Shown here: positions 38,546 through 64,000 of the stretch, piece after piece
How the letters are laid out: every line of letters starts with the position of its first letter
Numbering within the stretch: position 1 is the first letter of the stretch
Origin: an uncultured Dehalococcoidales bacterium
Lineage (GTDB): Bacteria; Chloroflexota; Dehalococcoidia; GIF9; AB-539-J10
Direction of reading: 5' to 3'
Assembly (NCBI GenBank): GCA_964394145.1
Contig: CAYMVL010000033.1
Location: 711-64,710, forward strand
DNA: 64,000 nucleotides
Program-made: the position numbers and the translations under genes
Notes under the pieces: generated by a model
Databases searched by the model: none
What the model saw: the letters and a program-made list of their open reading frames with translations, nothing else
Told to the model about the DNA's origin: nothing

Positions 38546-38577
38546 GCTAGTAAGTAAATAAAAGGAAGGTGAACATT

Positions 38578-40341: not shown

Positions 40342-40417
40342 AAGGCAATAGACATGGCTGGGCCTCACCTAGGAATGTATTACCTGGGCGTTACAGCGAA
40401 CCCTCCCTTTAAGGAAG

Positions 40418-41092: not shown

Positions 41093-41146
41093 CAGGCAGT
41101 CTGTTTTTCCTGTAGACTATTGGACTTTGATTTAAGGGAGTGAAAG

Positions 41147-42028: not shown

Positions 42029-42042
42029 GAGGTAAAGTAAAG

Positions 42043-45272: not shown

Positions 45273-45372
45273 TCTTGCTGCTTTGGAGCAAAAGGGAGAG
45301 GGAAAGAGGTAGCAAAAATTGAATACGATTTTATTTGGTTTTCAGGCTTAAGTCTGAAAAAGGAGGATAAAG

Positions 45373-45930: not shown

Positions 45931-45944
45931 GGAGGCATAAATAT

Positions 45945-47180: not shown

Positions 47181-47225
47181 TCTTGTTTTTTGGAAATAAA
47201 GTTTAAGTAGTAAGGAAGGTTTGTT

Positions 47226-48635: not shown

Positions 48636-49182
48636 CCAGCAATCTATTGGAGAGCAAATAGATGATATCTTAACACCAAATAAAAGGGAGAGGAAGAATC
48701 TCATTTCCCTGCTGCAGCAAGTCCAGGACAGACTGGGTTATCTTCCCCGCGAAGCAATGCTAGAGGTAAGCAAGTTCCTCGGCGTAGCAGAAGTTCAAGT
48801 ATTTTCAGTAGCCACTTTTTATAACCAATTCAGAATGAAACCTGTAGGCAGGTATCCTGTCGAGGTCTGCATGGGTACTGCCTGCCATTTGAAAGGCGGG
48901 CAATTCATTCTAGAGGAATTTGAGAGGCAGCTGGGAATCAAGGTGGAGGAGACCACAACGGATGGCAATTTCAGCCTGCATAGGGTTGCCTGTATGGGTT
49001 GTTGTATGCTGGCTCCTGTGGTGAAGATGGGTGATAGGGCCCCGGTGATAAGAATTGGCAATAAACTCTATCCCAAGATGACACCTTTTAAGGTGGAAGA
49101 GGTTTTAATACCTTATAGAGCGGAAATTCGGCAAAAGCCAGGAGAAGAGCAAGTCGGAGCCGGGAAGCAAGAGAAACGTTGA
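48628..49182 (+). CDS. NuoE/HoxE/HndA-like thioredoxin-fold [2Fe-2S] protein
   Basis: The product contains CMGTACHLKGG and ACMGCCMLAPVV (the C-x4-C...C-x3-C pattern of the 24-kDa subunit). It is 184 aa and overlaps the downstream NuoF-like gene by 4 nt. Confidence 0.8.
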   Translation: MSDQQSIGEQIDDILTPNKRERKNLISLLQQVQDRLGYLPREAMLEVSKFLGVAEVQVFSVATFYNQFRMKPVGRYPVEVCMGTACHLKGGQFILEEFERQLGIKVEETTTDGNFSLHRVACMGCCMLAPVVKMGDRAPVIRIGNKLYPKMTPFKVEEVLIPYRAEIRQKPGEEQVGAGKQEKR

Positions 49183-51101: not shown

Positions 51102-51862
51102 TGGCTAGGAAAATCGTTTCTACTGGAAGAGGAGGATCAGGGAAATCAACTTTTGTCGCCTTGATTAGCAAGTACTTGAAACCACCAACGTTGCTTATTG
51201 ACCTCGACCCTGACCTTAGCCTTGCTGATATGCTCGGCATGGATTTTCGTAAGGAAGGGAAAAGGACGGTTTGCGAGGCACTTTATGATGTTGTTGAAAA
51301 AAGAAAAAGCAATGTAAGCCCAACAATCACAACGCACGAGATGATGGAAGGCATGCTATGGAGCGATTGCTTGTACGAAGGGGAAAAAACGGACATCATT
51401 AGCCTTGGAACAAAGTTAACTGAAGGCTGTCTTTGCGCTCCGGACGAGATACTCAGGAGAGCAATTCCCAAGCTCGCTAAGAATTACGCCAACCTTGTAA
51501 TAGACTCTCCAGCTGGAGTGGAACATCTGAATCGGAATGTAGTGTCGGACGTAAATGACCTTTTCGTTATATGCGACCCCTCTGATAAATCTCTGAAGCA
51601 CATACCGAGGATAAAAGAGATTATAAAGCAGGTGGGGATTAAGTATGGCCATCTGTATCTTGTGGCGAACTATGAGTGTAATGGAGAGGCAGAAAATTAT
51701 CTGCAGCAGGTAGGTGAAGTCTATTTGGGCAAGGTAGAGTATGATGCCGAACTGGCACAGTATAATCTGGAAGGCAAGTCGCTTCTGGATTTGCCGGAGG
51801 ATTCAGTCGCTTCTTTGTCAGTAAAAAGAATTTTAATTAAAGCCGGTTATGAGATTAGGTAG
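51101..51862 (+). CDS. cooC: CooC/AcsF-family ATPase, copy 2
   Basis: The product begins MARKIVSTGRGGSGKSTF and contains ...GCLCAPDE (CxC). It is 253 aa and is a paralog of copy 3. Its start is shared with the NuoF-like stop region. Confidence 0.75.
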   Translation: MARKIVSTGRGGSGKSTFVALISKYLKPPTLLIDLDPDLSLADMLGMDFRKEGKRTVCEALYDVVEKRKSNVSPTITTHEMMEGMLWSDCLYEGEKTDIISLGTKLTEGCLCAPDEILRRAIPKLAKNYANLVIDSPAGVEHLNRNVVSDVNDLFVICDPSDKSLKHIPRIKEIIKQVGIKYGHLYLVANYECNGEAENYLQQVGEVYLGKVEYDAELAQYNLEGKSLLDLPEDSVASLSVKRILIKAGYEIR

Positions 51863-52122
51863 AGCGTACAGGAGTCAGGATCAATACAGGTAAGGTAGCC
51901 AAGAGTAACGTTAATGTCAAATAACAGTATGATTCACCAGCAGGAGGTATGATAAGGTCTTATGCCTATGCTACTGAATGCTGTGATGCTTCCCGGGACA
52001 AAGAGAAGCTATGAGCTTGGTCATAACGGCGAATCGCAGGTCTCTATGAGCAAGGTAATTCATATGCTCAGGCGTAAGCCTATGGAGATAGCCATGGGAC
52101 TAAGCTGGATCAGGTCAGGGGA

Positions 52123-52293
52123 ATGAGAGAGAAGCGACTATATTGGTGCCCTTTTTGCGAGCGTAACGTTTCCTTATGGAGGACAAAAGATAATAAACTA
52201 ATTTGTCCACGGTGTGGTAGAGAGGTGGTTTACATAACAAACGACGGTCGTATCGGGGCTATCAGAGGGAAGGAGGGGATTGCAAATAAATAG
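52123..52293 (+). CDS. Tiny zinc-ribbon protein (56 aa, two CxxC pairs)
   Basis: The product is MREKRLYWCPFCERNVSLWRTKDNKLICPRCGREVVYITNDGRIGAIRGKEGIANK. It is below the 60-aa ORF-track cut-off. It lies between two cooC paralogs, and its 3' end overlaps the start region of cooC copy 3. Confidence 0.4.
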   Translation: MREKRLYWCPFCERNVSLWRTKDNKLICPRCGREVVYITNDGRIGAIRGKEGIANK

Positions 52294-52297
52294 TAAG

Positions 52298-53077
52298 ATG
52301 ACTAGAGTAATTGTCTCTACCGGAAGGGGTGGAGTAGGCAAATCGACTTTCGCGGCTTTGGCTGGCAAGTACCTGGATCCTCCAAAGCTTTTGATAGATC
52401 TCGACCCCGACGAGAGCCTAGCTGATATGCTCGGGATAGAGCCGAAAGTGAGAGAGAAGACTATTTCGGGTGTACTATACGACGTTATAGAAGGAAATAG
52501 GGGCGCAGGGCGCACAGGCTACGGTCTCTTATCTGAAGTGATGCAATCTGTGGTATACAAAGGGGAAGGCTTTGATTTCATTGGTCTGGGCACAAAGTTC
52601 ACCGTGGGCTGTTATTGTGCCCCGGATGCAGTGCTGAAGGACTTGATCCCTAGTATAGCCAAGAATTACAGGGAGGTGGTAATAGACTCACCTGCCGGGC
52701 TTGAGCACTTTAATAGGAAAGTGGTGGTGGATATAGATGATCTATTCATAATTCTGGATCCATCGGACAAATCGATAAAGCATATAGAAAGAGTCAAGGA
52801 TATTGTTAGAGAAGTGAAAGTCAGCTATAATCATCTCTACCTCATAGGGAACTACAGGTTCACCGAGGAGACTGAAGAATATTTGAAGGACACTCGTGAA
52901 GTGTATTTAGGCAAAATAGACTACGATGCGGATGTAAAGCGATATAATTTAGAAGGGAGGTCTCTTATAGAATTGCCTGATGATTCTCCTGCCGCCCTTT
53001 GCGTAAGGAGGATTCTGGAGAAGGCAGGCTATACAATTACGTACGAAGATTTGAGATCAACCCGGATAATAGAGTAG
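52298..53077 (+). CDS. cooC: CooC/AcsF-family ATPase, copy 3
   Basis: The product begins MTRVIVSTGRGGVGKSTFAALAGKYL and contains ...GCYCAPDA. It is co-linear with copy 2 (compare LIDLDPDLSLADMLG with LIDLDPDESLADMLG). The ATG at 52298 is preferred over the track's TTG at 52280. Confidence 0.75.
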   Translation: MTRVIVSTGRGGVGKSTFAALAGKYLDPPKLLIDLDPDESLADMLGIEPKVREKTISGVLYDVIEGNRGAGRTGYGLLSEVMQSVVYKGEGFDFIGLGTKFTVGCYCAPDAVLKDLIPSIAKNYREVVIDSPAGLEHFNRKVVVDIDDLFIILDPSDKSIKHIERVKDIVREVKVSYNHLYLIGNYRFTEETEEYLKDTREVYLGKIDYDADVKRYNLEGRSLIELPDDSPAALCVRRILEKAGYTITYEDLRSTRIIE

Positions 53078-53117: not shown

Positions 53118-53849
53118 ATGAATGCACAAGTGCGAAAACCTTTTGAAGATGTCTTGGGATATCTTGAGGGGAAGAAGAAGATAGTGGTTATGGGATGTGG
53201 AGGATGCGCTACAATCTTCCATACTGGTGGTATACGAGATGTTGATGAGATGGCAGAGAAGCTTACGGAGGCGGGGAAGGAGGTAATAGGTAAAATCGGG
53301 CTACCTTTTGGGGTATTTACGTGCTATCTTCCCATGTCTTCTATGTTCCTGAATGAACACAGAAAGGAAATAGAGGAGTGCGATGCGATACTAATGCAGG
53401 CTTGTGGCGACGGGGCGCAGGCGGTGCGGGGCTATTTGGAGGATGAGTGGGGTATCGTCAAGCCGATATACCCATCTAACGATGCCCTTGGGTTTTCCAG
53501 TGGAGGTCCCAGTGATTTCAAGGAGGAATGTGGGGCATGTGGGGAGTGTGAGCTTGGGAAGACTTTTGGTATTTGTCCTTTCATACAGTGCCCTAAGGGG
53601 TTGCTTAATGGTCCCTGCGGTGGAACGACTGAAGAGGGTAAGTGCGAGGTGGATCCTACGCGAGACTGCGCTTGGGCTATGATTTATAAGAGGGCAGTAG
53701 AGCTTGGTGAGCTTGATCAGCTTCTGGACATAATTGAGCCGCATCATTGGAGTAAAAAAGTCCACCCAAGATCATTAACGGTTGAACCTATTGACCTTAT
53801 GGAGGAACTGAAGGGAACGAAGAGAGTCATAGAGGCACTAGGGCTATGA
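53118..53849 (+). CDS. metV: MetV-like Cys-rich protein (methylene-THF reductase C-terminal-domain family partner subunit)
   Basis: The 243-aa product contains GCGGCAT, CGACGECELGKTFGICPFIQCPKGLLNGPCGG and GKCEVDPTRDCAWAMIY. These resemble the Zn/Fe-S-binding MTHFR_C small subunit found next to metF in acetogens. AGGAGG lies 9 nt upstream. Confidence 0.6.
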   Translation: MNAQVRKPFEDVLGYLEGKKKIVVMGCGGCATIFHTGGIRDVDEMAEKLTEAGKEVIGKIGLPFGVFTCYLPMSSMFLNEHRKEIEECDAILMQACGDGAQAVRGYLEDEWGIVKPIYPSNDALGFSSGGPSDFKEECGACGECELGKTFGICPFIQCPKGLLNGPCGGTTEEGKCEVDPTRDCAWAMIYKRAVELGELDQLLDIIEPHHWSKKVHPRSLTVEPIDLMEELKGTKRVIEALGL

Positions 53850-53912
53850 TTTGAGGCCCTGTTGTGACTCCGGCCATAAGGCGGTGAGGGGAGTAGCAAG
53901 CAGAAGGAAAGC

Positions 53913-54782
53913 ATGAGCAGATTCAGCGAAGCGTTACAATCGCACAAGTTTGTGGTAACAGGTGAAATCGGCCCACCCAAGGGAGTTGATATTGGCGAGA
54001 TGCTAGAAGCAGCCAAGCTATACAAAGGAAGAGTTGTGGCAGTAAACGTTACTGACCAGCAAAGTGCTGTTATGAGGTTAGGTTCACTGGCAGTTTCACA
54101 TCTTCTTAAACAAATGGAGCTGGAGCCTATTTTCCAGATAACTTGCCGTGACCGTAATCGTATTGCAATACAATCAGATTTGCTCAGTGCCCATGTCTTG
54201 GGAATTGAGAATGTGCTTTGTCTGACCGGCGACTATGTCACTTTAGGTGATCATCCTCAGGCTAAGCCTGTTTTTGATCTTGATTCAGTGTCATTGCTTC
54301 AAACTGCCGTCCAATTGCAGCAGGGTAAGGATTTAGCCGGTAAGGAACTTCAGGGTTCCCCTAAATTCTTCCTGGGTGCTATAGTAACTCCGGGGGCTAA
54401 TCCTCTAGAGCCACAGATTATCAAAATGGAGAAGAAGGTCAAGGCCGGCGCTCAGTTTTTGCAGACTCAGGCTGTCTATGAGCCGAAGAAGTTCGAGGAA
54501 TTCATACAACAGGTGAAACATATCGGTGTACCGGTGCTGGCGGGGATCATCCTTTTGAAGTCGGCCGGTATGGCTCGCTTCATGAATAGAAATGTTGCTG
54601 GGGTGCATGTCCCCGATAATCTTATCGAGGAGATGGAAAAGGCAGAGAATAAGGCAGATAAGAGCATTGAGATTGCCGCTCGGTTGATTAGTGAGCTCAG
54701 AGGGCTTTGCCAGGGGGTGCACATTATGCCCATCGGCTGGGAGAAAAGGGTTCCTGCAGTCTTAGATGCTGCTAAATTGTAG
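53913..54782 (+). CDS. metF: Methylenetetrahydrofolate reductase (acetogen-type MetF, no C-terminal regulatory domain), copy 1
   Basis: The 289-aa TIM barrel begins ...KFVVTGEIGPPKG and contains ...VNVTDQQSAVMRL...CRDRNRIAIQS...LCLTGDY. It is a paralog of copy 2. Confidence 0.75.
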   Translation: MSRFSEALQSHKFVVTGEIGPPKGVDIGEMLEAAKLYKGRVVAVNVTDQQSAVMRLGSLAVSHLLKQMELEPIFQITCRDRNRIAIQSDLLSAHVLGIENVLCLTGDYVTLGDHPQAKPVFDLDSVSLLQTAVQLQQGKDLAGKELQGSPKFFLGAIVTPGANPLEPQIIKMEKKVKAGAQFLQTQAVYEPKKFEEFIQQVKHIGVPVLAGIILLKSAGMARFMNRNVAGVHVPDNLIEEMEKAENKADKSIEIAARLISELRGLCQGVHIMPIGWEKRVPAVLDAAKL

Positions 54783-54812
54783 ATGCTATGATGGTATAAT
54801 AATAGGAATAAT

Positions 54813-55973
54813 GTGATGAGCGATAAACAAGTTATTAATCCTGATTCGTTAGATAGAGAAGCGCTATTGCAGGTCCTGAGAAAGTCCAGCCTATTTCAAG
54901 GGGCGGAGGAAGAGGAATTATCGAGGATAGCCGGTTTTTCTCATGAAGAAAGGTTCGAGCCAGGAGAAGTCATAGTTGCTGAAGGTGAAGTTGCCGAGAA
55001 AGTGTATATTGTGGAGGAGGGAGAGGTAGGGCTTGAGGCTAGTCTATCTGCGCGGCCTGGCTCAGAGAGACGGGGTACCATAGGACTTGTTGTTCAAGGA
55101 GAAGCTTTTGGTTGGTCAGCCATCTTAGAAGGCCGACTGACAATGACTGCTCGAGCTATCTCAGCTGTTAGGGCCATTGTCATTGATAGCCATGCCTTGA
55201 ACGCTCTCCTTGTTACGGACACGAGGCTCTGCTCCACTGTGATGAGGGGAATAGTAGAGATTGTTTCTCTTCGGCTTACGAACACCATAACCATGCTGGC
55301 ACATATTCTGTCGGTTGCATCTCACGATCTTAAGTCACCTCTGGCTGCTGTGCAGAGCTATCTTCAGGTAATTCTTGGTGGTTTTGTTGGTGAGCTAAAT
55401 GAGAAGCAAAGGGAGATGCTCTCTCGGAGCTGCACGAGAATTGCGGAATTCCTTGAGATGATTGATAACATCTTGGATGTTTCTCGCTTTGAATCTGGGC
55501 AGATGGAAATGGCCGAGCTGTCTCTGAATGATATAGTGCGTGATAGCACCGAGATACTTCGTCCTCTGGCTGATGAGAAGCAGTTGAGTCTTAATCTGGA
55601 CCTACCTGATGAAACGCAGAAAGCTAAAGGCTCAGCGACACGACTCAAGCAAGTAGTCTCTAACTTGGTAGGAAATGCCATCAAGTTCACTCCCAGCGGA
55701 GGCAAAATTTCTGTTAAGTTAACGGAAGATGATGCCTACCACAGGGTAGAAGTGGCTGATACGGGCGTGGGCGTTTCTCCTGAGGACCTACCCAGGATAT
55801 TTGATGATTTTTATCGTGGGGTAGCTGGAGACACCGAAGCTAAAGGGAGTGGTTTGGGTCTTTCGATTAGCAAGAAGATTATCGAGGCTCACGGTGGCAG
55901 AATTTGGGTTGAGAGCCCTTGTTCTGAGACGGGTAAGGGTAGCAAATTCATTTTTGTCCTGCGCAAGGGCTAA
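54813..55973 (+). CDS. Soluble sensor histidine kinase with N-terminal cyclic-nucleotide-binding (Crp-like effector) domain
   Basis: The cNMP-binding domain contains LFQGAEEEELSRIAGFSHEERFEPGEVIVAEGE...ERRGTIGLVVQGEAFGWSAI. The HisKA H-box is SHDLKSPLAAVQSYLQ. The HATPase_c domain contains GLGLSISKKIIEAHGGRIWVES. No TM helices are present. Confidence 0.8.
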   Translation: MMSDKQVINPDSLDREALLQVLRKSSLFQGAEEEELSRIAGFSHEERFEPGEVIVAEGEVAEKVYIVEEGEVGLEASLSARPGSERRGTIGLVVQGEAFGWSAILEGRLTMTARAISAVRAIVIDSHALNALLVTDTRLCSTVMRGIVEIVSLRLTNTITMLAHILSVASHDLKSPLAAVQSYLQVILGGFVGELNEKQREMLSRSCTRIAEFLEMIDNILDVSRFESGQMEMAELSLNDIVRDSTEILRPLADEKQLSLNLDLPDETQKAKGSATRLKQVVSNLVGNAIKFTPSGGKISVKLTEDDAYHRVEVADTGVGVSPEDLPRIFDDFYRGVAGDTEAKGSGLGLSISKKIIEAHGGRIWVESPCSETGKGSKFIFVLRKG

Positions 55974-55995
55974 GATTAATAAGCGAAAGGAATTT

Positions 55996-56919
55996 ATGGT
56001 GATGAAAGCAGGAACTAATCTGGAAAGAGTCTTAGAAAGCGGCGCTTTCGCGGTCACTGCTGAAGCGGCTCCAGCTAAGGGAGCTATCAGCAGCGTTATT
56101 GAGAGGAAGGGGGAGATGCTTAAGCTCTATTGTGACGCCGTGAATGTCACCGACAACCAATCAGCGGTGGTTAGAATGTCGAGCTGGAGCAGTTGTGTTC
56201 TGCTAAAAAGCTTTGGCATCGACCCGGTAATGCAAATTGTTGTGCGGGATAGGAACCGGCTAGCCATCCAAAGCGACGTTTTGGGTGCTGTATCTTTGGG
56301 CATCCAGAATATCTTATGCTTATCGGGAGACCATCAATCTCTTGGCAACCATCCCGACGCCAAAGGAGTCTATGATATCGATTCTATCCAGTTGATTCAA
56401 ATGTTGAAGGCTATGCGGGATGAAAAGAAGTTTCAGAATGGTGAAGAAATATCAGGGGATGTGCCTGTCTTCATCGGTGCTGCATGTAATCCCTTCGCTG
56501 CGCCGTTTGAGTATAGAGTCCTGCGGTTAGTTAAGAAGGTGAAGGCTGGAGCTGATTTTATTCAGAGTCAGGCTATTTTTGATGTGTCAAAGTTTGCTAA
56601 ATGGATGGAGATGGTTAGAGATCGGGGCTTGGATAAGCAGGTACATATCCTCGCCGGGCTTGTTCCTGTAAAATCACTGGGTATGGCCCGATACATGAGG
56701 GACTATGTCTCCGGCATTTATGTGCCGGACGAAGTTATCAGTCGTTTGGAAGACGCCAAAAACGCTAAAGAGGAAGGAATCAAGATATGTCTCGAGACAA
56801 TTGAGCAGCTGAAAGAGATCGAAGGGGTCCACGGGATACATATTATGGCTGTTGCCTGGGAAGAGGTTGTTCCTCGCATTGTAGAGGAAGCTAAGCTCCT
56901 TCCCAGACCGGTGGTATAA
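55996..56919 (+). CDS. metF: Methylenetetrahydrofolate reductase (MetF), copy 2
   Basis: The product begins MVMKAGTNLERVLESGAFAVTAEAAPAKG and contains ...VNVTDNQSAVVRM...VRDRNRLAIQS...LCLSGDH. It is co-linear with copy 1. The start is the ATG at 55996, because the track ORF from 55849 overlaps the kinase gene. Confidence 0.75.
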   Translation: MVMKAGTNLERVLESGAFAVTAEAAPAKGAISSVIERKGEMLKLYCDAVNVTDNQSAVVRMSSWSSCVLLKSFGIDPVMQIVVRDRNRLAIQSDVLGAVSLGIQNILCLSGDHQSLGNHPDAKGVYDIDSIQLIQMLKAMRDEKKFQNGEEISGDVPVFIGAACNPFAAPFEYRVLRLVKKVKAGADFIQSQAIFDVSKFAKWMEMVRDRGLDKQVHILAGLVPVKSLGMARYMRDYVSGIYVPDEVISRLEDAKNAKEEGIKICLETIEQLKEIEGVHGIHIMAVAWEEVVPRIVEEAKLLPRPVV

Positions 56920-56941
56920 GTCTTGGAAAAAAGGAGGCATA

Positions 56942-57346
56942 ATGGCGGACCAGCAGAAGATATTGATTGTCGATGATGACCCGGATATTCTAGTAGCAAT
57001 TGGGGCTGTCTTGGAGGCACGAAACTACCAGGTAGTCACTGCGAATGACGGAGAAGAAGGTCTGAGTAAACTCAAGGAGGAAAGGCCTGACTTGATGATT
57101 TTGGATCTCCTGATGCCTCGAAAGGATGGCTTTGCGGTTTGCAAGGAATTGCGAGACCCTAGGTGGTCAAAGTATAGCAGTATTCCAATCCTGATTCTCA
57201 CTTCGGTGAGGGAAGAGGTGAGCCGAAGGCGATATGAACTCGAGACCGGTTTGAGCCTCGATGTTGACGACTATGTTGAAAAGCCCATTGACCCATTTGT
57301 GCTGGCTGAACGAGTGGAAAAGCTTCTGAAAAGGGCGAAGTCGTAG
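56942..57346 (+). CDS. Receiver-only response regulator (CheY-like, no output domain), copy 1
   Basis: The 134-aa product contains KILIVDDDPDIL...LMILDLLMPRKDGF...VEKP. It is a REC domain with the phospho-acceptor Asp in ILDLLMP. AGGAGG lies upstream. Confidence 0.8.
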   Translation: MADQQKILIVDDDPDILVAIGAVLEARNYQVVTANDGEEGLSKLKEERPDLMILDLLMPRKDGFAVCKELRDPRWSKYSSIPILILTSVREEVSRRRYELETGLSLDVDDYVEKPIDPFVLAERVEKLLKRAKS

Positions 57347-57429
57347 TGGTCAGACGTTTGCTTAGCCAAGAAGATGAAAGGCAAAGATCCTCGGTGCGGC
57401 CTGAGGATAGGAATAGCTGAGGTAAGAGA

Positions 57430-57819
57430 ATGGGGCAACCTTCTAAGATTCTTCTAATCGACGATGACCCTGATTTTGTCGAGGCAACTAGGGTTGTACT
57501 GGAGAGCCAGCCCTTTACGGTGATCACTGCTCTAGGCGGCGAGGAGGGTTTAAGGAAGGCGCGTGACGAAAAGCCTGATTTAGTACTGCTGGATATAATT
57601 ATGCCCGGAGTGGACGGCTTTCAGGTCTGCCAGCAACTGAAAAAGGATCCTGAATTGGCCCAGATTCCAGTGATCATGATTACATCGTTCTCGCAGCATT
57701 ATATGGATACTTCGTTAGGGATTGGCCAAGGGCTCAGTTTGGAAGCTGAAGATTTTGTTGATAAGCCCGTTGCCCCGGCTGAGCTTCTCATACGAGTTAA
57801 TAAGTGGTTGCCGAAGTAG
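57430..57819 (+). CDS. Receiver-only response regulator (CheY-like, no output domain), copy 2
   Basis: The 129-aa product contains KILLIDDDPDFV...LVLLDIIMPGVDGF...VDKP. It is a paralog of copy 1. Confidence 0.8.
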   Translation: MGQPSKILLIDDDPDFVEATRVVLESQPFTVITALGGEEGLRKARDEKPDLVLLDIIMPGVDGFQVCQQLKKDPELAQIPVIMITSFSQHYMDTSLGIGQGLSLEAEDFVDKPVAPAELLIRVNKWLPK

Positions 57820-57885
57820 ACAACATTTGTGAGACTGACCCGGAGAAGGCTTTTCTTCAAGGTCTATTGAGGAGTTGGAATTCAA

Positions 57886-58449
57886 ATGGTTGGTCAGCTA
57901 ATTCGAGTGTCGGAGCTTGATGCCAGCTTCAAACAGGAAGTTGTCTTTCGTGAACCTTCCTGTGCTTTGAGTGCTTGTTACTACTGTGGAACTTGCACGG
58001 GCGGATGCCCTACCCATGCACTACATCCTGAGCATGACCCGAGAAAGATAGTGAGGATGATAAATCTTGGGATGAAGGGAGATGTGTTAAGCAGTGTCTA
58101 TATCTGGTATTGCTCTGAAAAATGTTTTCTCTGTGAGAAATTCTGCCCCCAGAGTGTGATGTTCTCTAGTATATGGAACGTTCTAAGGCATATGGTGGTG
58201 GAAGGGGGATACCCGCTTCCCATTTCAATTAATGAGGATGGCTGCTCTGGATGCGGCATCTGTGTTGCTTCATGTCCCAATACAGCTATGGAACTCTACA
58301 CACAGAACGGCAATAGAATTGCCCATGTGGTCGCTAACTTATGCAAGGGCTGCGGAGCATGCAGTGCAGCCTGTCCGTCTGGAGCAATCTCAATAAAGCT
58401 CTTTGAAGACGAGAATATTTCTGCTCAAATAGAAGCGCTTGCGGCATAA
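57886..58449 (+). CDS. hdrC: HdrC-like iron-sulfur protein with additional C-terminal 2x[4Fe-4S] ferredoxin domain
   Basis: The product contains CYYCGTCTGGCP and CSEKCFLCEKFCPQ (an HdrC-type double C-x2-C-x2-C-x3-CP). It also contains CSGCGICVASCP and CKGCGACSAACP. The product is 187 aa. Confidence 0.7.
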   Translation: MVGQLIRVSELDASFKQEVVFREPSCALSACYYCGTCTGGCPTHALHPEHDPRKIVRMINLGMKGDVLSSVYIWYCSEKCFLCEKFCPQSVMFSSIWNVLRHMVVEGGYPLPISINEDGCSGCGICVASCPNTAMELYTQNGNRIAHVVANLCKGCGACSAACPSGAISIKLFEDENISAQIEALAA

Positions 58450-58458
58450 GGTATAGAA

Positions 58459-58971
58459 TTGCGGAGTGAATCAGTTAGAGCAACAGAACTCGATCCGGAT
58501 TTTAAGCGCGAGGTGATGGCTCATGAGGGTGCTCGCAACATAACCGCCTGTTTTTACTGCGGAACCTGCACGGCAGCATGTCCTGTCCATGAAGTGCTCC
58601 CTGAGTTTGATCCGAGAAAGATGGCCAGGATGGTAAATCTGGGCCTGAAGAACAATCTCTTGAGCAGCCCTTATATTTGGGACTGCACCACTTGCCTTGA
58701 GTGTGTGGAAAGTTGCCCTCAGAATGTAAATTTTTTCGAAGTGCTGAACGTGCTAAAGAACATGGCGGCACAGGAAGGATATGCACCTCCTGCTTGGGTT
58801 AACCAGACAAAGCAGGTTATGCAATCGGGCCTGGTGTTCCCCACTGAGGAAGCGTGGGTAAATAGAAGAGAAGAACTTGGCCTTCGTCCACTAAAATCTG
58901 AAGGGAAAGGGGCAGCGAAGTTAATCCAATCGACTGGTGCTGATAAGATCAGAGAGAAGAAGCAGTCATGA
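58459..58971 (+). CDS. hdrC: HdrC-like iron-sulfur protein, copy 2
   Basis: The product contains CFYCGTCTAACP and CTTCLECVESCPQ. Its N-terminus is co-linear with copy 1 (compare VRATELDPDFKREV with IRVSELDASFKQEV). It has a TTG start and is 170 aa. Confidence 0.65.
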   Translation: MRSESVRATELDPDFKREVMAHEGARNITACFYCGTCTAACPVHEVLPEFDPRKMARMVNLGLKNNLLSSPYIWDCTTCLECVESCPQNVNFFEVLNVLKNMAAQEGYAPPAWVNQTKQVMQSGLVFPTEEAWVNRREELGLRPLKSEGKGAAKLIQSTGADKIREKKQS

Positions 58972-59852
58972 GCAAGTATGCCCTGTTCTTAGGTTGCACC
59001 ACTCCCATAAGAGTCCCTCAGTACGAACTATCTACCAGATGGCTTTGTGAGCATTTTGGGGTCGAGCTAATCGACGTTCAAGATTTCGTGTGTTGCGGTG
59101 CTAATCAGATTAACATAAGTATGGAAAGCGGCCTTCTATTGTCCGCAATGAACCTGGCTCTTGCTGAAGCTGAGAATCTGGATATCGTTACTCTTTGCCC
59201 CTGGTGTTTCACTGCTTTAGCAGCGGGAGTGGAGGAGCTCAAGAAGGAAGAGGTGAAAGCCGAGGTAAATAGGGAGCTATCAACAATAGGCCTGCGCTAT
59301 AGCGGGAGAACGAGAGTAAAGCACATATCAAGAGTTCTTTATGAGGACATAGGTCTGGAAAGGATTAAGCAAGAGGTGAGGAGAGACTTGTCCAAGATTA
59401 GAGTGGCGCCGCATTATGGCTGTCGCTATCTAAGGCCAAGATGGGCCTCCAAAGGATTTGATGAACCCAATGATCCTAAGACTCTTCACCAGCTTGTCTC
59501 TGCTACCGGTGCCGTTCCTGTCGATTATGAGACTATTCATTTGTGCTGTGGAGGCAAAGTCTTCCCTGTTTCAGAGAACCTGGCTCATTCCTTGATAAGG
59601 AAGAAGCTTGATAATCTGGATAGTAAAGAGGTGGATTGTATGGTTGTTCTGTGTCAGACATGCTACCTCATGTATGCCACCCAACAGGGAAAGGTGTCGG
59701 AGAAGTCTAATGGTCAGTATAAGCTACCCATTATTCTTTACCCTCAACTTCTTGGTCTTGCCATAGGGGCAGATCCAGTATCTGACCTTGGCCTTAACTT
59801 GAATGTGCCTGCTGTCGACGCAGTAATAGCAAAGGTCGGGAACGGTTTATAA
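58968..59852 (+). CDS. hdrB: HdrB-like protein with two CCG (Cys-rich) domains
   Basis: The first CCG domain contains FLGCTTP...FVCCGANQ...LCPWCF. The second contains HYGCRYL...HLCCGGK...LCQTCY. The product is 294 aa and overlaps the hdrC stop by 4 nt. Confidence 0.75.
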   Translation: MSKYALFLGCTTPIRVPQYELSTRWLCEHFGVELIDVQDFVCCGANQINISMESGLLLSAMNLALAEAENLDIVTLCPWCFTALAAGVEELKKEEVKAEVNRELSTIGLRYSGRTRVKHISRVLYEDIGLERIKQEVRRDLSKIRVAPHYGCRYLRPRWASKGFDEPNDPKTLHQLVSATGAVPVDYETIHLCCGGKVFPVSENLAHSLIRKKLDNLDSKEVDCMVVLCQTCYLMYATQQGKVSEKSNGQYKLPIILYPQLLGLAIGADPVSDLGLNLNVPAVDAVIAKVGNGL

Positions 59853-59870
59853 GAAACAGGATCATGAAAA

Positions 59871-62800
59871 ATGGACACCAAGTCAGGAACTAAGAAAACA
59901 GGGGCTGTCTTGGTCCTAGGGGGCGGGATAGGTGGAATACAAGCCTCGCTCGATCTTGCTGAATCCGGGTATAAAGTCTATTTAGTTGAGGAAGCCCCAG
60001 CTATAGGTGGCGTAATGGCCCAACTGGATAAGACTCTTCCTACCAACGATTGTTCCATGTGTATCCTATCGCCTAAGCTGGTGGAGTGCGGACGGCATTT
60101 CAATATTGAGCTTCTGACTTATAGCGAACTTCTTGATGTCGAAGGAGAGGCAGGCAGCTTCACTGCCACCGTGAAGAAGAAGGCGAGGTTTGTAGATGTT
60201 ACACGCTGCACTGCTTGTAACCTGTGTGCCGAAGGGTGCCCGGTGGTAATGAATAACGATTTCGAAGAGGGGTTGGGCCAGCGAAAGGCAATTTATAACC
60301 TCTATCAACAAGCAGTTCCTAATGCTTATGTTATTGATAAGAGGGAAGAAAGGCCCTGCAATGCTGCATGCAAGGATGCTTGCCCCATTCATATGAACGT
60401 TCCCGGTTACATAGCTTTGATCAAGCAGGGCATGTTTATAGAGGCCTATGACCTCATTAGAAAGACTAACCCCCTGCCCGGAGTCTGTGGGCGAGTTTGC
60501 TACGCTCCTTGTGAAGATGCCTGCAATCGGGGAGAGATGGACGCTCCCCTGGCAATCCGTGAACTGAAGAGATTTGTTGCTGACCAAATCGATATTGAGA
60601 GTGTTGCGACTCCTCAAGTTTCCAAGAACGGTAAGAGAGTGGCGATTATTGGCAGTGGTCCAGCAGGTCTGTCGGCAGCCCACGACCTTGCTCTCGAAGG
60701 CTACGATGTCCTTATATTTGAGGCTTTGCCAGAGCCGGGAGGGATGCTTCGATACGGAATTCCAGAATACCGTCTTCCAAAACATATTCTTGGCCAGGAG
60801 ATTGCCTATATCGAGAGACTGGGGGTGGAAATAAGGAGTGGTGTTAAGGTAGGTGATGACATAGGGCTTGAGGAACTGAGGAGTTCTTATGATGCTGTTT
60901 TTATCAGCGTCGGCGCCCAAGAAAGCTTGAAGCTGGGAATTCCCGGGGAAAATACTCCCGGGGTGATCCATGGCATTGATTTCTTGCGCAACATAAACAT
61001 GGGTCAGGGGATTAGCTTAGGGAAGAGAGTAGTGGTGGTCGGCGGCGGTAATGTCGCTATTGACGTTTCCAGAGTGGCAAGGAGATTAGGGGTCGAGGTT
61101 AGCATAATGTATAGGCGTTCTCGGTCCGAGATGCCAGCTACTTCTGAGGAGGTCGAATCTGCAGAGCAAGAGGGGGTTAAGATTGATTTCTTGGTCAGCC
61201 CTGTCAGGATAATTGCTGAAAATGGCAGAGTCTCTAAAATTGAATGTATTAGAATGGAGTTAGGAGCTCCAGATGAAAGCGGTCGCCGTCGCCCTGTAGC
61301 CATAGAAGGTTCCGAGTTCACTATCAGTGTTGATAGCATAATTCCGGCTTTGGGGCAAGCGTCAAATGTTGAGTTTGGTAAGAAGGCAGGCCTAGATATT
61401 GATCGCAATGGAGTTATTTCAGTGGATAAATCCACTTTCGCTACTAATATTGAGGGTATATTCGCAGGTGGGGATGTGGTTACCGGTCCGGCTATGGTTA
61501 TTGATGCCATAGCTGCGGGTAAGAAAGCAGCGTGTTCCATAGATGAGTACATTCGAGGTGAGCCTTTGACTTCTAAGGAAGATGAAAAGGCTCCTGAGAA
61601 GCTCAGCGAAGAGCAGCTTTCTGCGGCGAAACAGCGTTTTGCCTCTCAAAGTAGAGTAAAGGCGAAGGAACTAGAAGCCAGCCTGCGCATCGGAGGGTTT
61701 CTCGAGGTGGAAACAGGTTATTCCATTGCTGAAGCTCAGGCAGAAGCGGGTCGATGTTTAGCTTCGCAAATAGAAGGCTGTATTGGCTGTGGTGAATGTG
61801 AGCAAAGGTGTGGGGCTAAGGCTATTAATTACGACATGCGAGATGAAATTGTAAACTTGGAGGTGGGGTCGGTCATCTTGGCTCCCGGTCTTGATGAATT
61901 TGATCCTAGTCCCTTACTCAAATATGGATATGGTAAATACCCAAATGTTGTGACCAGCATCCAGTTTGAAAGAATTATGAATGCCTCAGGCCCATATCAA
62001 GGAGAAATCATAAGGCCTTCAGATAAGAAGGCGCCCCGCAAGATAGCGTGGATTCAATGTGTGGGCTCGAGAGACGAGAGCATCGGAGCAGGGTATTGCT
62101 CGTCGGTTTGTTGTGCTTATGCCATAAAACAAGCAATTATCGCTAAAGAACATGCGGGGCAGCAATTAGACACCGCGATATTCTTTATGGACATGAGACT
62201 GCATGGCAAGGGATATGAAAATTACTATAATCGGGCGAAAGAGGAGCACGAGGTAAAATTCATCCGTTCTAGGGTATACGGGATTCAGGAAATTGATGGT
62301 ACTGGGAATTTATCCCTCAGGTTCGCAGAGGAGGATGGAAAGTTAAACGAAGAGGAGTTTGATCTCGTAGTTTTATCGGTGGGATTTCGGCCCTCCAGAA
62401 AAGGCGCGGACCTAGCCCAAAGACTTGGTATACAGCTGAACAAATATGGATTTTGCCAGACAGGTGAATTTACGCCGGTGGAGACTTCGCGGCCCGGGAT
62501 ATTTGTCTGTGGAGCTTTTCAAGGACCTAAGGATATTCCGGAAACGGTGATGCAGGCGAGCGCGGCCGCGGCGAATTCCTCAGCTCTCCTTGCCTCGGGA
62601 CGGAATACACTAACTGTATCCAAAGAATACCCTCCTGAGAAGGATGTCACAGGCCAGCCTGCCAGAGTCGGTGCCTTCATTTGCCACTGTGGAATAAATA
62701 TCGGGGCACATGTAGATGTCCCCAGTGTAGTTGAATATGTCAGAACGCTTCCAAATGTTGCGTATGCCGAGCACAATGTCTACACCTGTTCTCAGGATAC

Positions 62801-64000
62801 TCAAGAACGGATAAAAGCAGCAATAAAGGAACACAATCTTAACCGGGTAGTGGTGGCTGCCTGTACTCCCATAACCCATGAGCCTTTGTTCCGAGAGACG
62901 ATAAGAGAGGCAGGTCTTAATCCGTTTCTGTTTGAGATGGCCAGTATCCGTGAACACTGTTCATGGGTTCATATGGACGAGCCTATTAAAGCAACACAGA
63001 AGGCCAAAGACCTTGTTCGGGCCGCAATTGCGCGAGCAGCCTTGCTTCAGCCTTTACACAAAGTAAGCCTCGGACTGAGTCATGACGCGCTCGTGGTCGG
63101 TGGAGGGATAGCGGGGATGACTGCAGCCCTTAACCTGGCTGAGCAAGGGTTCAAGGTATGCCTTGTGGAACAGGAGAAAGAGCTTGGAGGGTGGGTGAGG
63201 AAAGTACATATTCCTCTGGGTGAAACAAGCCCGCAAGATTATTTGCGCTCCCTGATAAAGAGAGTTGAGGGCAATGAACTTGTTGAAGTTCTCACCGAGA
63301 CCAAGGTGGTCAAATTCGAAGGATTTGTGGGCAACTTTAAAACCACAGTTGCTAGCGGGGAGAGGCAGAGGTTAATTGAGCACGGCGTGGTCATTATAGC
63401 TACGGGAGCTAAGGAATACAGGGGTGAGGAGTATTTGTTAGGACAAGACGACCGGGTGCTCACCCTCTCCGATCTTGAGGAGAAAATCATTAAGTCTGCT
63501 GCAGAGATAGCCAAAGTTAGAAATATCGCCATGGTTCTATGTATCCGACCTGAGGAAGGCAATTTCAATTACTGTAGCCGTGTCTGTTGCACGGGAGCGA
63601 TCAAGAATGCCCTGAAAATTAAGGAGATTAACCCGGAAGCAAACATATACATACTGTATAAGGATATCAGGACCTACGGATTTAAGGAGGAGCTCTATAC
63701 CAGGGCTAGGAAGGAAGGCATCATATTTATCCGGTATGATGACGAAAAGCCACCGCGCGTCAGTCCCAACGATGGCCATCTCGAGGTGAACGCGCTCGAC
63801 CCCATCCTGGGTGAGCAGCTTATCCTGACCGCAGATTTACTTGTCCTGGCTGAGCCTATGGTTCCTTCTGAGACTAACGAAGAACTGAGAAATATCATGA
63901 AGCTTACTCTTACCAAGGAAGGGTTCTTCCATGAGGCGCATGTGAAGCTTGCGCCGCTCGATTTCTCCTCAGAGGGAATATTTATGTGTGGCACGGCGCA
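59871..64000 (+). CDS. Giant HdrL-like flavo-iron-sulfur protein: tandem HdrA-like modules with an inserted GltD/NfnB-like NAD(P)H-binding domain (3' end beyond window)
   Basis: The frame is open from the ATG at 59871 to the window end (over 1376 aa). Module 1 is HdrA-like (VLVLGGGIGGIQASLDLAESGYKVYLVEE...LDKTLPTNDCSMC, with an inserted CTACNLCAEGCP). A GltD-like domain follows (KRVAIIGSGPAGLSAAHDLALEGYDV...VVVVGGGNVAIDVSR). The HdrA thiol/FeS tail follows (CIGCGECEQRC...CVGSRDES...YCSSVCCAYAIKQA). Module 2 repeats the pattern (ALVVGGGIAGMTAALNLAEQGFKV...CSRVCCTGAIKNA). Confidence 0.75.
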   Translation, partial: MDTKSGTKKTGAVLVLGGGIGGIQASLDLAESGYKVYLVEEAPAIGGVMAQLDKTLPTNDCSMCILSPKLVECGRHFNIELLTYSELLDVEGEAGSFTATVKKKARFVDVTRCTACNLCAEGCPVVMNNDFEEGLGQRKAIYNLYQQAVPNAYVIDKREERPCNAACKDACPIHMNVPGYIALIKQGMFIEAYDLIRKTNPLPGVCGRVCYAPCEDACNRGEMDAPLAIRELKRFVADQIDIESVATPQVSKNGKRVAIIGSGPAGLSAAHDLALEGYDVLIFEALPEPGGMLRYGIPEYRLPKHILGQEIAYIERLGVEIRSGVKVGDDIGLEELRSSYDAVFISVGAQESLKLGIPGENTPGVIHGIDFLRNINMGQGISLGKRVVVVGGGNVAIDVSRVARRLGVEVSIMYRRSRSEMPATSEEVESAEQEGVKIDFLVSPVRIIAENGRVSKIECIRMELGAPDESGRRRPVAIEGSEFTISVDSIIPALGQASNVEFGKKAGLDIDRNGVISVDKSTFATNIEGIFAGGDVVTGPAMVIDAIAAGKKAACSIDEYIRGEPLTSKEDEKAPEKLSEEQLSAAKQRFASQSRVKAKELEASLRIGGFLEVETGYSIAEAQAEAGRCLASQIEGCIGCGECEQRCGAKAINYDMRDEIVNLEVGSVILAPGLDEFDPSPLLKYGYGKYPNVVTSIQFERIMNASGPYQGEIIRPSDKKAPRKIAWIQCVGSRDESIGAGYCSSVCCAYAIKQAIIAKEHAGQQLDTAIFFMDMRLHGKGYENYYNRAKEEHEVKFIRSRVYGIQEIDGTGNLSLRFAEEDGKLNEEEFDLVVLSVGFRPSRKGADLAQRLGIQLNKYGFCQTGEFTPVETSRPGIFVCGAFQGPKDIPETVMQASAAAANSSALLASGRNTLTVSKEYPPEKDVTGQPARVGAFICHCGINIGAHVDVPSVVEYVRTLPNVAYAEHNVYTCSQDTQERIKAAIKEHNLNRVVVAACTPITHEPLFRETIREAGLNPFLFEMASIREHCSWVHMDEPIKATQKAKDLVRAAIARAALLQPLHKVSLGLSHDALVVGGGIAGMTAALNLAEQGFKVCLVEQEKELGGWVRKVHIPLGETSPQDYLRSLIKRVEGNELVEVLTETKVVKFEGFVGNFKTTVASGERQRLIEHGVVIIATGAKEYRGEEYLLGQDDRVLTLSDLEEKIIKSAAEIAKVRNIAMVLCIRPEEGNFNYCSRVCCTGAIKNALKIKEINPEANIYILYKDIRTYGFKEELYTRARKEGIIFIRYDDEKPPRVSPNDGHLEVNALDPILGEQLILTADLLVLAEPMVPSETNEELRNIMKLTLTKEGFFHEAHVKLAPLDFSSEGIFMCGTA

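Follow-up and report, generated by a model that had tools for sequence, protein, structure and literature searches.

Of the steps in the Wood-Ljungdahl pathway, that of the Hdr-type methylene-THF reductase (MTHFR) is understood least. The Moorella thermoacetica complex MetFV-HdrABC-MvhD, which is reportedly encoded by Moth_1191-1196 and is said to have been described by Mock et al. in 2014, is counted as an Hdr-type or class IV MTHFR. [quoted passage not shown] 2022, PMC9430772). The purified complex reduced methylene-THF with reduced benzyl viologen and reduced benzyl viologen with NADH; bifurcation with a physiological acceptor has never been demonstrated, and a second acceptor was not found (PMC5861303, PMC9430772). 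The Hdr-type MTHFR of Sporomusa ovata is membrane-associated and H2-dependent, without demonstrable bifurcation (PMC9430772), and HdrA homologs that do not bifurcate are known (PMC9430772, citing Appel et al. 2021). Among marine Chloroflexi, DscP3 and its relatives possess an hdrABC-mvhD-metVF cluster, and DscP3 has duplicated, non-identical metV and metF genes (42.8% and 40.9%) and a two-component system beside one metF (Sewell et al. 2017, PMC5736913). Desulfobacterium autotrophicum HRM2 encodes HdrL, a fusion of HdrA and glutamate synthase with an NADH-binding site; the protein is predicted to be soluble, and its gene precedes mvhD (Strittmatter et al. 2009, PMC2702500). The Desulfobacterium HdrL genes adjoin dsrABC or fdh, two of the three contain selenocysteine, and HdrL was proposed to supply electrons for sulfite reduction (PMC2702500).

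The window analysed here is a stretch of 64,000 nucleotides of DNA, the closest named relatives of which are Dehalococcoidales and Dehalococcoidia MAGs. We estimate a probability of about 75% that the region under study encodes an Hdr-type (Moorella-type, 'class IV') MTHFR, MetFV-HdrCBA-MvhD, situated at the distal end of a co-directional Wood-Ljungdahl cluster of ~28 kb, the uncultured host being probably a member of the Dehalococcoidia (Chloroflexota). Gene content, domain architecture, cofactor motifs, synteny and intactness are matters of direct observation. Pfam matches and gene calls place the upstream Wood-Ljungdahl genes at 37781..53077 on the forward strand, where they comprise cooC, fhs, a gene for a 2Fe-2S/4Fe-4S protein, acsE, acsD, archaeal-type cdhA, cdhB, cdhC and acsC, along with nuoE-like and nuoF-like genes and two genes for cooC-like ATPases. 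Only 40 nt separate the last of these genes (ending at 53077) from metV1. From 37781 to past the window end every gene lies on the same strand with gaps of -4 to 83 nt, and no terminator-like site was found in any intergenic gap of this run. An earlier note on this DNA had listed MetV, two MetF, two HdrC, HdrB and a giant HdrA, and all of these ORFs are present on the forward strand where it placed them, with strong family matches. The hdr genes have met genes to either side, all on one strand and with short gaps, and near-identical contigs that continue past the window end place mvhD, then metV2 and then a DUF3786 gene there. The canonical order hdrCBA-mvhD-metV-metF is broken in that DUF3786 follows metV2 and metF2 lies upstream, between a kinase gene and two receiver genes. 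Gene order is typical of the Hdr-type MTHFR family and not strictly defining.

The cluster holds two PF12225 genes, the second of which lies past the window end, and two PF02219 genes. MetV1 (53118..53849, forward strand; PF12225, E 4e-29) is a zinc/Fe-S small subunit of MetVF-type MTHFR with 243 aa, MetF1 (53913..54782, forward strand; PF02219, E 2e-38) is a catalytic subunit of 289 aa, and MetF2 (55996..56919, forward strand; PF02219, E 5e-40) is a second MTHFR subunit of 307 aa. MetV1 is the divergent paralog of its pair, with 41.3% identity to MetV2, and MetF1 and MetF2 have 42.4% identity. In 11 of 11 loci the Hdr-linked MetV is orthologous to MetV2, the gene for which starts 44 nt after mvhD. 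MetF2 is of the type usually found after mvhD-metV in Hdr-linked clusters, with 50-58% identity to the MetF encoded after MvhD-MetV in eight loci (L008, L012, L014, L021, L028, L042, L047 and L058) and 70% identity to the MetF of the Dehalococcoidales relative L087. MetV2 and MetF2 are most likely the partners of the Hdr core. MetV1 has 898 homologs, and those with 59-66% identity in L089, L090 and L091 occur in metV-metF pairs with no hdr gene within 7 kb (3 of 3 contexts sampled). In the window, ~4 kb separate the MetV1-MetF1 pair from the first hdr gene. Of the proteins in the loci compared, those nearest to MetF1 are the Hdr-linked MetF of L023 (57%) and L088 (51%). MetV1-MetF1 may constitute a second MTHFR, of the stand-alone MetVF type (class II). 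Since the MetV1 lineage is seen in stand-alone metVF pairs, a pair of separate MTHFR systems and the sub-functionalisation that the earlier note had proposed for the duplicates are equally likely. A search of a copy of the PDB returned no counterpart of MetV or of the whole MetFV-Hdr complex.

The hdrC, hdrB and hdrA genes are contiguous (57886-64000, forward strand), run in the direction of the met genes, and are separated by gaps of 9, -4 and 18 nt. The first gene (57886..58449, forward strand) encodes an HdrC-like protein of 187 aa with 17 Cys that matches TIGR03290 at aa 29-108 and, as had been claimed, has an extra C-terminal 2x[4Fe-4S] ferredoxin domain; this Fer4 dicluster (aa 113-170) is similar to the Fd domain at the C-terminal end of HdrA (NF040770, E 2e-16). 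Its ortholog in L087 lies directly upstream of hdrL and is 58% identical. The second HdrC (58459..58971, forward strand; 170 aa, TTG start) has two [4Fe-4S] motifs, matches TIGR03290 (E 2.4e-30) with a score under the equivalog cut-off, and shares 64% identity with that of L088. Its gene overlaps hdrB (58968..59852, forward strand) by 4 nt. HdrB (294 aa; PF02754, E 4e-22) has two CCG domains for non-cubane [4Fe-4S] clusters, with CCG at 42-44 and 193-195 and CxxC at 77-80 and 229-232, and is colinear with methanogen HdrB (5odc_B, E 3.5e-52). The CoB-CoM heterodisulfide reductase HdrABC of the methanogen equivalog was considered and rejected, all three subunits scoring under the NCBIfam cut-offs (HdrA, 629.5 vs 1400; HdrB, 231 vs 345; HdrC, 105 vs 160); CoM/CoB genes are absent here.

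The large, 'HdrL'-type HdrA (59871..64000, forward strand) has a frame that is open to the window end, with 1376 of its 1486 codons in the window. The full 1486-aa ORF was read from L001:10904-15364, a contig with one difference from the window in 15033 bases, and its stop lies 331 nt beyond the window end. The protein aligns to methanogen HdrA (5odc_A) in four stretches (E 4e-204) and contains two HdrA TrxR-like modules and a complete GltD/NfnB domain. The N-terminal part of module 1 (aa 1-159; 59871..60347, forward strand) aligns to residues 145-291 of 5odc_A and carries the FAD motif GGGIGG (17-22) and the first half of an inserted ferredoxin domain (C113-C123). Nested within that ferredoxin domain is the GltD/NfnB-like domain (aa 160-634; 60348..61772, forward strand; Fer4_20, E 6e-22; Pyr_redox_2, E 2e-67; TIGR01316, E 1e-125, with a score under the TIGR01316 cut-off), which has two [4Fe-4S] sites, the FAD motif GSGPAG (261-266), the NAD(P)H motif GGGNVA (391-396) and YRR (414-416). 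It aligns end to end with Thermotoga maritima NfnB (4ylf_B, E 1.7e-106) and has the YRR..EMPA motif, which bears out the claim of a GltD/NfnB-like NAD(P)H domain in the giant protein. The C-terminal part of module 1 (aa 635-920; 61773..62630, forward strand; 5odc_A residues 291-510) supplies the second ferredoxin half (C637-C647), E700, CVGSRD (730-735), C743/C747/C748 and K753, with E700 and K753 equivalent to E356 and K409 of 5odc_A. Between the modules lies an HdrA N-terminal-type ('MvhD-like') domain (aa 931-1060; 62661..63050, forward strand) that aligns to 5odc_A residues 4-173 with 217 bits, a position that agrees with the description of Moorella HdrA from aa 922 on (PMC9430772). Module 2 (aa 1065 onward; 63063..64000, forward strand), delimited by its alignment with module 1 and by its motifs, has the FAD motif GGGIAG (1077-1082), E1203, C1224/C1235/C1239/C1240 and K1245, and is without an inserted ferredoxin domain. 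The Glu/Lys signature of bifurcating HdrA is kept in both modules. Annotation pipelines wrongly call the large HdrA a 'homotetrameric NADPH-dependent glutamate synthase' or a 'selenate reductase YgfK'.

Several features of this protein had been read differently. Two HdrA modules are indeed present, but the CxGxRD...CC...A.K motif attributed to both reads CVGSRD in module 1 and C-I-R-P-E-E in module 2, where all four cluster cysteines are retained. The C-terminus, which had been thought possibly MvhD-like, is a 2x[4Fe-4S] ferredoxin domain (C1419-C1459, past the window and read from L001). MvhD is not replaced by the giant protein; a separate 145-aa MvhD/FlpD gene (L001:15364-15801; PF02662) lies outside the window and shares its first base with the hdrA stop codon. 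Nor does the locus depart from the acetogen complex by substituting an HdrL-type protein for HdrA, as Moorella HdrA itself has 1487 aa and the same layout (PMC9430772). The Moorella-like layout of HdrA and the presence of MvhD point to a known Hdr-type MTHFR within a full Wood-Ljungdahl cluster.

If the complex works as its homologs suggest, NAD(P)H would give its electrons to the FAD of the GltD/NfnB-like domain that lies within the large HdrA. They would travel on via that domain's two [4Fe-4S] clusters and then the split ferredoxin domain, reaching the TrxR-like flavin(s) of HdrA. A high-potential electron would then move via HdrC/HdrB and MetV to the flavin of MetF, where methylene-THF would be reduced (E0' about -200 mV), and a low-potential electron would exit by way of the C-terminal ferredoxin domain and then MvhD, reducing a low-potential acceptor that may be ferredoxin. 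In an acetate- or methyl-group-oxidising organism, the same complex may run in reverse, as confurcation. We infer the formation of the complex, its specificity for NADH or NADPH, bifurcation, direction and the MetVF pair that docks. The evidence is consistent with the earlier suggestion of a MetFV-Hdr-type MTHFR that uses NADH, with NADH use and bifurcation predicted by homology. Since YRR after the NAD(P)H Rossmann motif also occurs in NADPH-binding NfnB, specificity for NADH is uncertain.

Three signalling genes that the earlier gene list omitted are embedded in the cluster. A histidine kinase of 385-386 aa with an N-terminal cyclic-nucleotide-binding domain (54813..55973, forward strand; cNMP_binding, E 4e-14; HisKA, E 1e-12; HATPase_c, E 4.5e-32) precedes metF2, and two stand-alone response-regulator receivers follow it, RR1 (56942..57346, forward strand; 134 aa; PF00072, E 5e-24) and RR2 (57430..57819, forward strand; 129 aa; PF00072, E 6.5e-25), which are 44% identical to each other. 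The kinase-metF-receiver-receiver block is kept in L087, where the receiver after metF is 74% identical to RR1, and a receiver gene also lies downstream of metF in four Desulfobacterota loci (L012, L042, L047 and L058). The cNMP-binding kinase and the two receivers probably regulate the MTHFR system. As a long shot, the cassette may be a dedicated post-translational/transcriptional switch for MTHFR, in which the cyclic-nucleotide-sensing kinase would phosphorylate two output-less receivers that would bind the Hdr/MetVF complex or pick the MetVF pair (MetV1F1 or MetV2F2) and the HdrC (plain or ferredoxin-extended) that dock on a single HdrL-HdrB-MvhD core. If so, the receivers' choice would determine which way the Wood-Ljungdahl methyl branch runs, or its electron partner. 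The cassette in L087 and the receivers after metF in Desulfobacterota suggest a phylogenetically broad, unstudied link between phosphorelay and MTHFR.

An alternative to a single Hdr-type MTHFR is that two independent systems are adjacent only through the clustering of Wood-Ljungdahl and redox genes. MetV1-MetF1 (perhaps with MetF2) would then be a stand-alone ferredoxin-dependent MetVF-type MTHFR, and HdrL-HdrCB-MvhD a general NAD(P)H-dependent bifurcating module for another acceptor; candidates would include a disulfide, a DsrC-like thiol, and a partner hydrogenase or formate dehydrogenase whose genes lie elsewhere. The hdr-free contexts of MetV1-type genes fit this arrangement, as do ~11 of the 18 full-length HdrL loci, which have only mvhD or other hdr genes as neighbours and no metVF. 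L087 fits as well, having mvhD-mvhG-mvhA [NiFe] hydrogenase genes inside the cluster and no hdrB; no hydrogenase genes were found within the window. That most HdrL loci are without metVF and that Desulfobacterium HdrL lies beside dsr or fdh indicate that the HdrL module is not specific to MTHFR. Nevertheless, we consider two systems unlikely, given the Hdr-linked metV2 directly past mvhD, the closely spaced met genes on both sides of the hdr genes, and an hdrL-mvhD-metV-metF order that spans ~6 phylum-level lineages. This order recurs in Bacillota (L008), Desulfobaccia (L012), Bacteroidota (L014), Thermodesulfobacteriota (L023), Actinomycetes (L028) and Dehalococcoidia (L088), the last with the exact canonical order hdrC-hdrB-hdrL-mvhD-metV-metF.

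The enzyme might instead, although this appears very unlikely, act as a linear NAD(P)H:methylene-THF oxidoreductase without bifurcation, or depend on a co-reductant or membrane partner in the way suggested for S. ovata, the Hdr subunits being a mere electron wire. The missing second acceptor of the Moorella enzyme, the behaviour of the S. ovata enzyme and the non-bifurcating HdrA homologs are all compatible with such a scheme. Both TrxR modules retain the Glu/Lys pair that marks bifurcating HdrA flavins, however, and the C-terminal di-cluster ferredoxin domain and MvhD, which would have no role in a simple linear wire, are kept. That the giant ORF might be a pseudogene or the product of a chimeric assembly, a notion prompted only by its unusual length and its cut at the window end, is refuted. 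The identical intact 1486-aa ORF, which had been flagged for a check for frameshifts and stops, occurs in at least 5 independent assemblies with 0-8 mismatches across their 13-15 kb overlap with the window. More than 120 homologs of 1440-1515 aa have at least 53% identity, and hundreds of the same length occur in many phyla, including cultured bacteria of the Desulfotomaculum group.

The Hdr-type MTHFR of this locus shares with methanogen HdrABC-MvhAGD (PDB 5ODC) the TrxR fold of HdrA, its cluster cysteines, the equivalents of E356/K409, the N-terminal domain and the C-terminal Fd domain, as well as the two CCG motifs of HdrB and the two clusters of HdrC, but its HdrA is duplicated and has a GltD insertion. 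Both [4Fe-4S] sites of T. maritima NfnAB (PDB 4YLF) are present in the inserted domain, as are the two Rossmann motifs, for FAD and NAD(P)H, and the YRR..EMPA motif. NfnB is a free subunit in that enzyme, whereas here the domain is internal to HdrA and the cluster has no NfnA-like (PyrK-like) gene, which sets the locus apart from NfnAB. Desulfobacterium HdrL is likewise an HdrA fused with a glutamate-synthase-type NAD(P)H domain and followed by mvhD, with dsrABC or fdh as neighbours there and metVF here. The large GltD-containing HdrA is widespread and no peculiarity of sulfate reducers, and the claim that HdrL is unique to D. autotrophicum (PMC2702500) is outdated. DscP3 also has two metV/metF sets, a two-component system flanking one metF, and a Moorella-like cluster linked to the Wood-Ljungdahl pathway. 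Its hdrC and hdrB are fused, whereas here they are separate and hdrC is duplicated, and it belongs to an Anaerolineae-like subphylum I in contrast to the Dehalococcoidales/Dehalococcoidia affinity of the present DNA.

With the Moorella complex, the locus has six subunit types in common, mvhD directly after hdrA, and adjoining acs genes. It differs in the upstream position of metF2, the DUF3786 gene after metV2, the second metV-metF pair, the second HdrC with its extra ferredoxin domain, the embedded histidine kinase and receivers, the archaeal-type CODH/ACS, and a host that is probably of the Chloroflexota rather than the Bacillota. The locus is an intact, largely ordinary copy of an already described cluster, with no new enzyme architecture. 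It adds a complete example from an uncultured Chloroflexota lineage and opens no new test of the second-acceptor question; experimental follow-up is worthwhile here only for the signalling genes embedded in the cluster and for its two MetVF lineages. Compared with its published description rather than by direct alignment, Moorella HdrA matches the protein in length (1487 vs 1486 aa), in domain order (Fd and TrxR interrupted by GltD, then MvhD-like, TrxR and C-terminal Fd), in a second half without an inserted Fd domain, and, within 4 residues, in its Glu/Lys pairs (E696/K750 and E1204/K1246 vs E700/K753 and E1203/K1245). The practical value of the comparison is mainly one of correction, in that 'HdrL' and the 'HdrA' of Moorella are one architecture under two names.

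Ten consecutive genes on the + strand extend from position 53118 to the end of the window. The block opens with metV1 (53118-53849) and metF1 (53913-54782), followed by a gene for a histidine kinase with a cyclic-nucleotide-binding domain (54813-55973), metF2 (55996-56919), two genes for single-domain response regulators (56942-57346 and 57430-57819), a gene for an HdrC-like protein with an extra di-cluster ferredoxin domain (57886-58449), hdrC (58459-58971), hdrB (58968-59852) and a large hdrA (59871-64000) that stays open for 1376 codons to the window end. Each of the ten has strong Pfam and NCBIfam matches, which bear out the genes and sizes listed in an earlier note on this DNA, although the kinase and the two receivers had been left out there. 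Within the met/hdr block, neighbouring genes are separated by -4 to 83 nt, and a terminator scan found no terminator-like hairpin in these gaps, every terminator-like site lying inside a coding region. The short gaps and the lack of a terminator-like hairpin within them are compatible with co-transcription, though short of proof. A promoter scan was uninformative on operon boundaries, promoter-like sites being rarer in the window than in shuffled sequence, and no riboswitch or other RNA element was found upstream of the met genes, there being no Rfam match anywhere in the window.

Contigs from several metagenomes, found by an exact look-up of HdrB, extend past the window end and differ from the window by 0 to 8 mismatches across 13-15 kb of overlap. 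The large hdrA is intact at 1486 aa in all overlapping contigs (at least five assemblies), and a frameshift or chimera is therefore excluded; the ORF is free of the frameshifts or stops that the earlier note had regarded as fatal to its reading. A selenoprotein version of the large HdrA was also considered and ruled out, as the ORF reads through with Cys codons. The C-terminus of the protein is a classical 2x[4Fe-4S] ferredoxin domain and not the MvhD-like domain that had been thought possible. FlpD/MvhD is instead encoded by a separate gene (145 aa) whose start overlaps the hdrA stop codon. A second metV (metV2, 229 aa) lies 44 nt after mvhD, a DUF3786 gene abuts metV2 with no gap, and asd is next. 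This DUF3786 gene (with metV2 at L001:15846-17177 on one overlapping contig) occupies the place that canonical clusters give to metF. Some 2 kb beyond it, at L001:19125-20315, the opposite strand carries a second DUF3786 gene, which adjoins a gene with a PF04060 'FeS' domain; AcsC has this domain at its N-terminus as well.

Alignment of the large HdrA with the crystal structure of a methanogen HdrA (5ODC) gave four colinear stretches. Residues 12-158 (5ODC 145-291) comprise the FAD-binding region together with the inserted ferredoxin domain's first cluster motif, and residues 635-854 (5ODC 291-510) hold the second cluster motif and the remaining thioredoxin-reductase-like (TrxR) domain. The HdrA N-terminal domain and the beginning of a second TrxR domain are found at residues 931-1100 (5ODC 4-173), and the TrxR end and C-terminal ferredoxin domain at residues 1299-1481 (5ODC 464-649). 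Since the matches stop and resume at residue 291 of 5ODC, residues 160-634 are nested exactly at that position. These residues form a complete GltD/NfnB domain that aligns end to end with T. maritima NfnB (E 1.7e-106) and keeps both Fe-S sites, the FAD motif GSGPAG, the YRR..EMPA stretch and the NAD(P)H motif GGGNVA. Loss of the last motif was a weakness that the earlier note had anticipated, and the NfnB alignment dispels it. Bifurcating HdrA flavins are recognised by a Glu/Lys pair; this pair, E356/K409 in 5ODC, corresponds to E700/K753 in the large HdrA, and an internal alignment of the two modules places a second pair, E1203/K1245, in module 2. Module 2 keeps the four cluster cysteines and is without the inserted ferredoxin domain; the CxGxRD motif attributed to it previously is a misreading, the sequence there being CIRPEE.

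By homology with the Moorella enzyme, NAD(P)H would reduce the FAD of the GltD domain, and electrons would pass onward to the HdrA flavin(s). One branch may then run through HdrC/HdrB to MetV, MetF and methylene-THF, and the other by way of the C-terminal ferredoxin domain and then MvhD to an acceptor of low potential. In the literature on the purified Moorella complex, methylene-THF was reduced by reduced benzyl viologen, and benzyl viologen was reduced by NADH. The copy of the PDB that was searched held no counterpart of MetV and none of the MetFV-Hdr complex. The direction of the reaction at this locus (reductive or oxidative), its pyridine-nucleotide specificity and bifurcation itself are inferred.

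Directly upstream on the same strand are cooC, fhs, a gene for a 2Fe-2S/4Fe-4S protein, acsE, acsD, archaeal-type cdhA/cdhB/cdhC, acsC, nuoE-like and nuoF-like genes and a further two that are cooC-like. Together with these, the met/hdr genes make up a Wood-Ljungdahl cluster of about 28 kb, of which they are the distal part. The cluster is a hybrid (41147-48635) in which bacterial-type fhs and acsE accompany archaeal-type CODH/ACS subunits, namely CdhA (769 aa, with a ferredoxin insertion), the epsilon subunit CdhB and a short CdhC (411 aa). Also inside it are genes for a 224-aa NuoG/HydA-N-like 2Fe-2S/4Fe-4S protein (40418-41092) and for NuoE-like and NuoF-like proteins, the latter of 640 aa with Fer4 domains (48628-51101). 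No hydrogenase or formate dehydrogenase partner or catalytic subunit is encoded in the window, the remainder of which consists of housekeeping genes. A 465-aa ORF on the + strand among ordinary genes of this kind (28144-29541) has no Pfam match at E <= 1e-8.

The large GltD-containing HdrA architecture is common. The best 120 database matches are 1440-1515 aa long with at least 53% identity and come from Dehalococcoidia, Aerophobetes, Kryptonia, Bryobacteraceae and archaea, the closest named relatives among them being Dehalococcoidales and Dehalococcoidia MAGs (60-70% identity), on which the taxonomic placement is based. A search with a Bacillota homolog found the architecture in cultured Desulfoscipio, Desulforamulus, Desulfotomaculum and Pelotomaculum, and none of its best 120 matches was named Moorella. 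The database names for the architecture vary ('homotetrameric NADPH-dependent glutamate synthase', 'putative selenate reductase YgfK subunit', '4Fe-4S ferredoxin', 'NAD(P)-binding protein') and hide the identity of these proteins as large HdrA subunits.

The window proteins were compared with at least 80 GTDB loci encoding relatives of this protein, which is also called HdrL, plus two look-ups; no Moorella locus was present among the 600 matches listed in the genome scan. Among the loci listed, the order hdrL-mvhD-metV-metF occurs in Bacillota, Desulfobaccia, Bacteroidota, Thermodesulfobacteriota, Actinomycetes and Dehalococcoidia, and the exact Moorella order hdrC-hdrB-hdrL-mvhD-metV-metF is found in a Dehalococcoidia locus (L088). 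Nearby metVF genes are absent from about 11 of the 18 full-length-HdrL loci among those listed. The HdrL module is a predicted bifurcation unit of general use with NAD(P)H input, and its coupling to methylene-THF reductase is frequent without being universal. A 70%-identical Dehalococcoidales relative (L087) has, in this order, hdrC-Fd, hdrL, mvhD, metV, mvhD-mvhG-mvhA [NiFe] hydrogenase genes and kinase-metF-receiver-receiver, and the window arrangement looks like a combination of L088 and L087. In L087 (GCA_050014095.1, L087:15612-18440), a second mvhD with mvhG and mvhA follows hdrL-mvhD-metV and hdrB is lacking; this hydrogenase insertion suggests an H2-linked version of the HdrL module. 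Some Desulfobacteraceae, Phycisphaerae and Spirochaetes (L021:374-6721, L024:2191-12538, L032:2073-8463) encode a short N-terminal piece of HdrA, nuoE and nuoF-like genes and then the remaining HdrA. This split unit, which in L021 is linked to mvhD-metV-metF, appears to be an alternative NADH-input module that replaces the GltD insertion. A Chloroflexota MAG (L013:2407-11582) has two tandem full-length HdrL-type genes, each 47% identical to the query.

MetF1 and MetF2 are 42.4% identical, and MetV1 and MetV2 41.3%. Eleven loci have an Hdr-linked MetV; in every one it matches MetV2 better than MetV1, and in nine of the 11 MetF2 outscores MetF1. MetV1 has 898 homologs; in the three contexts examined, metV and metF stand alone as a pair and hdr genes are absent within 7 kb, and one of these contexts is in an archaeon that also carries mtr and mcr genes. 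Most simply, MetV2/MetF2 would be the partners of the Hdr core, and MetV1/MetF1 may constitute an independent MetVF-type enzyme. Another possibility is sub-functionalisation of the duplicates within one complex. As for the paired HdrC proteins, the extra domain of the longer one resembles the C-terminal ferredoxin domain of HdrA, and its ortholog directly precedes hdrL in L087, where hdrB is absent.

The kinase-metF-receiver-receiver block is common to the window (54813-57819) and the L087 MAG (L087:18577-21795), and in several Desulfobacterota loci (L012, L042, L047, L058) a single receiver gene lies 45-430 nt after the Hdr-linked metF, such that the association of metF with receiver domains spans phyla. 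Only two features might merit experiments: this cyclic-nucleotide-binding kinase/receiver cassette and the presence of two MetV lineages side by side. Two metV/metF sets, with a two-component system flanking one metF, were described in the marine Chloroflexi DscP3 (Sewell et al. 2017, PMC5736913), in which the paralog identities are almost equal to those in the window, so the arrangement has already been published.

Moorella thermoacetica HdrA is a 162.8-kDa protein of 1487 aa (Kremp et al. 2022, PMC9430772). Its N-terminal half has ferredoxin and TrxR-like domains split by a GltD domain with sites for [4Fe-4S], FAD and NAD(P)H, its residues 922-1487 resemble methanogen HdrA (MvhD-like, TrxR and C-terminal ferredoxin domains) without the inserted ferredoxin domain, and its conserved pairs are E696/K750 and E1204/K1246 (PMC9430772). 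The large HdrA of the window fits this account, residue numbers included, when set against the published description. Therefore, the acetogen HdrA has not been replaced by a new protein: the claim that a giant protein stands in for HdrA and MvhD does not hold, since the large HdrA is the same type of protein as Moorella HdrA and MvhD is encoded as usual. HdrL, as defined in Desulfobacterium autotrophicum, is a fusion of HdrA with glutamate synthase that has mvhD downstream (PMC2702500), and HdrL and Moorella HdrA are one architecture under two names. The earlier interpretation is partly supported because the novelty it claimed rests on a wrong premise about acetogen HdrA, while the genes and domains it observed are confirmed. 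The locus is a further example of the known Hdr-type methylene-THF reductase cluster and not a new architecture.
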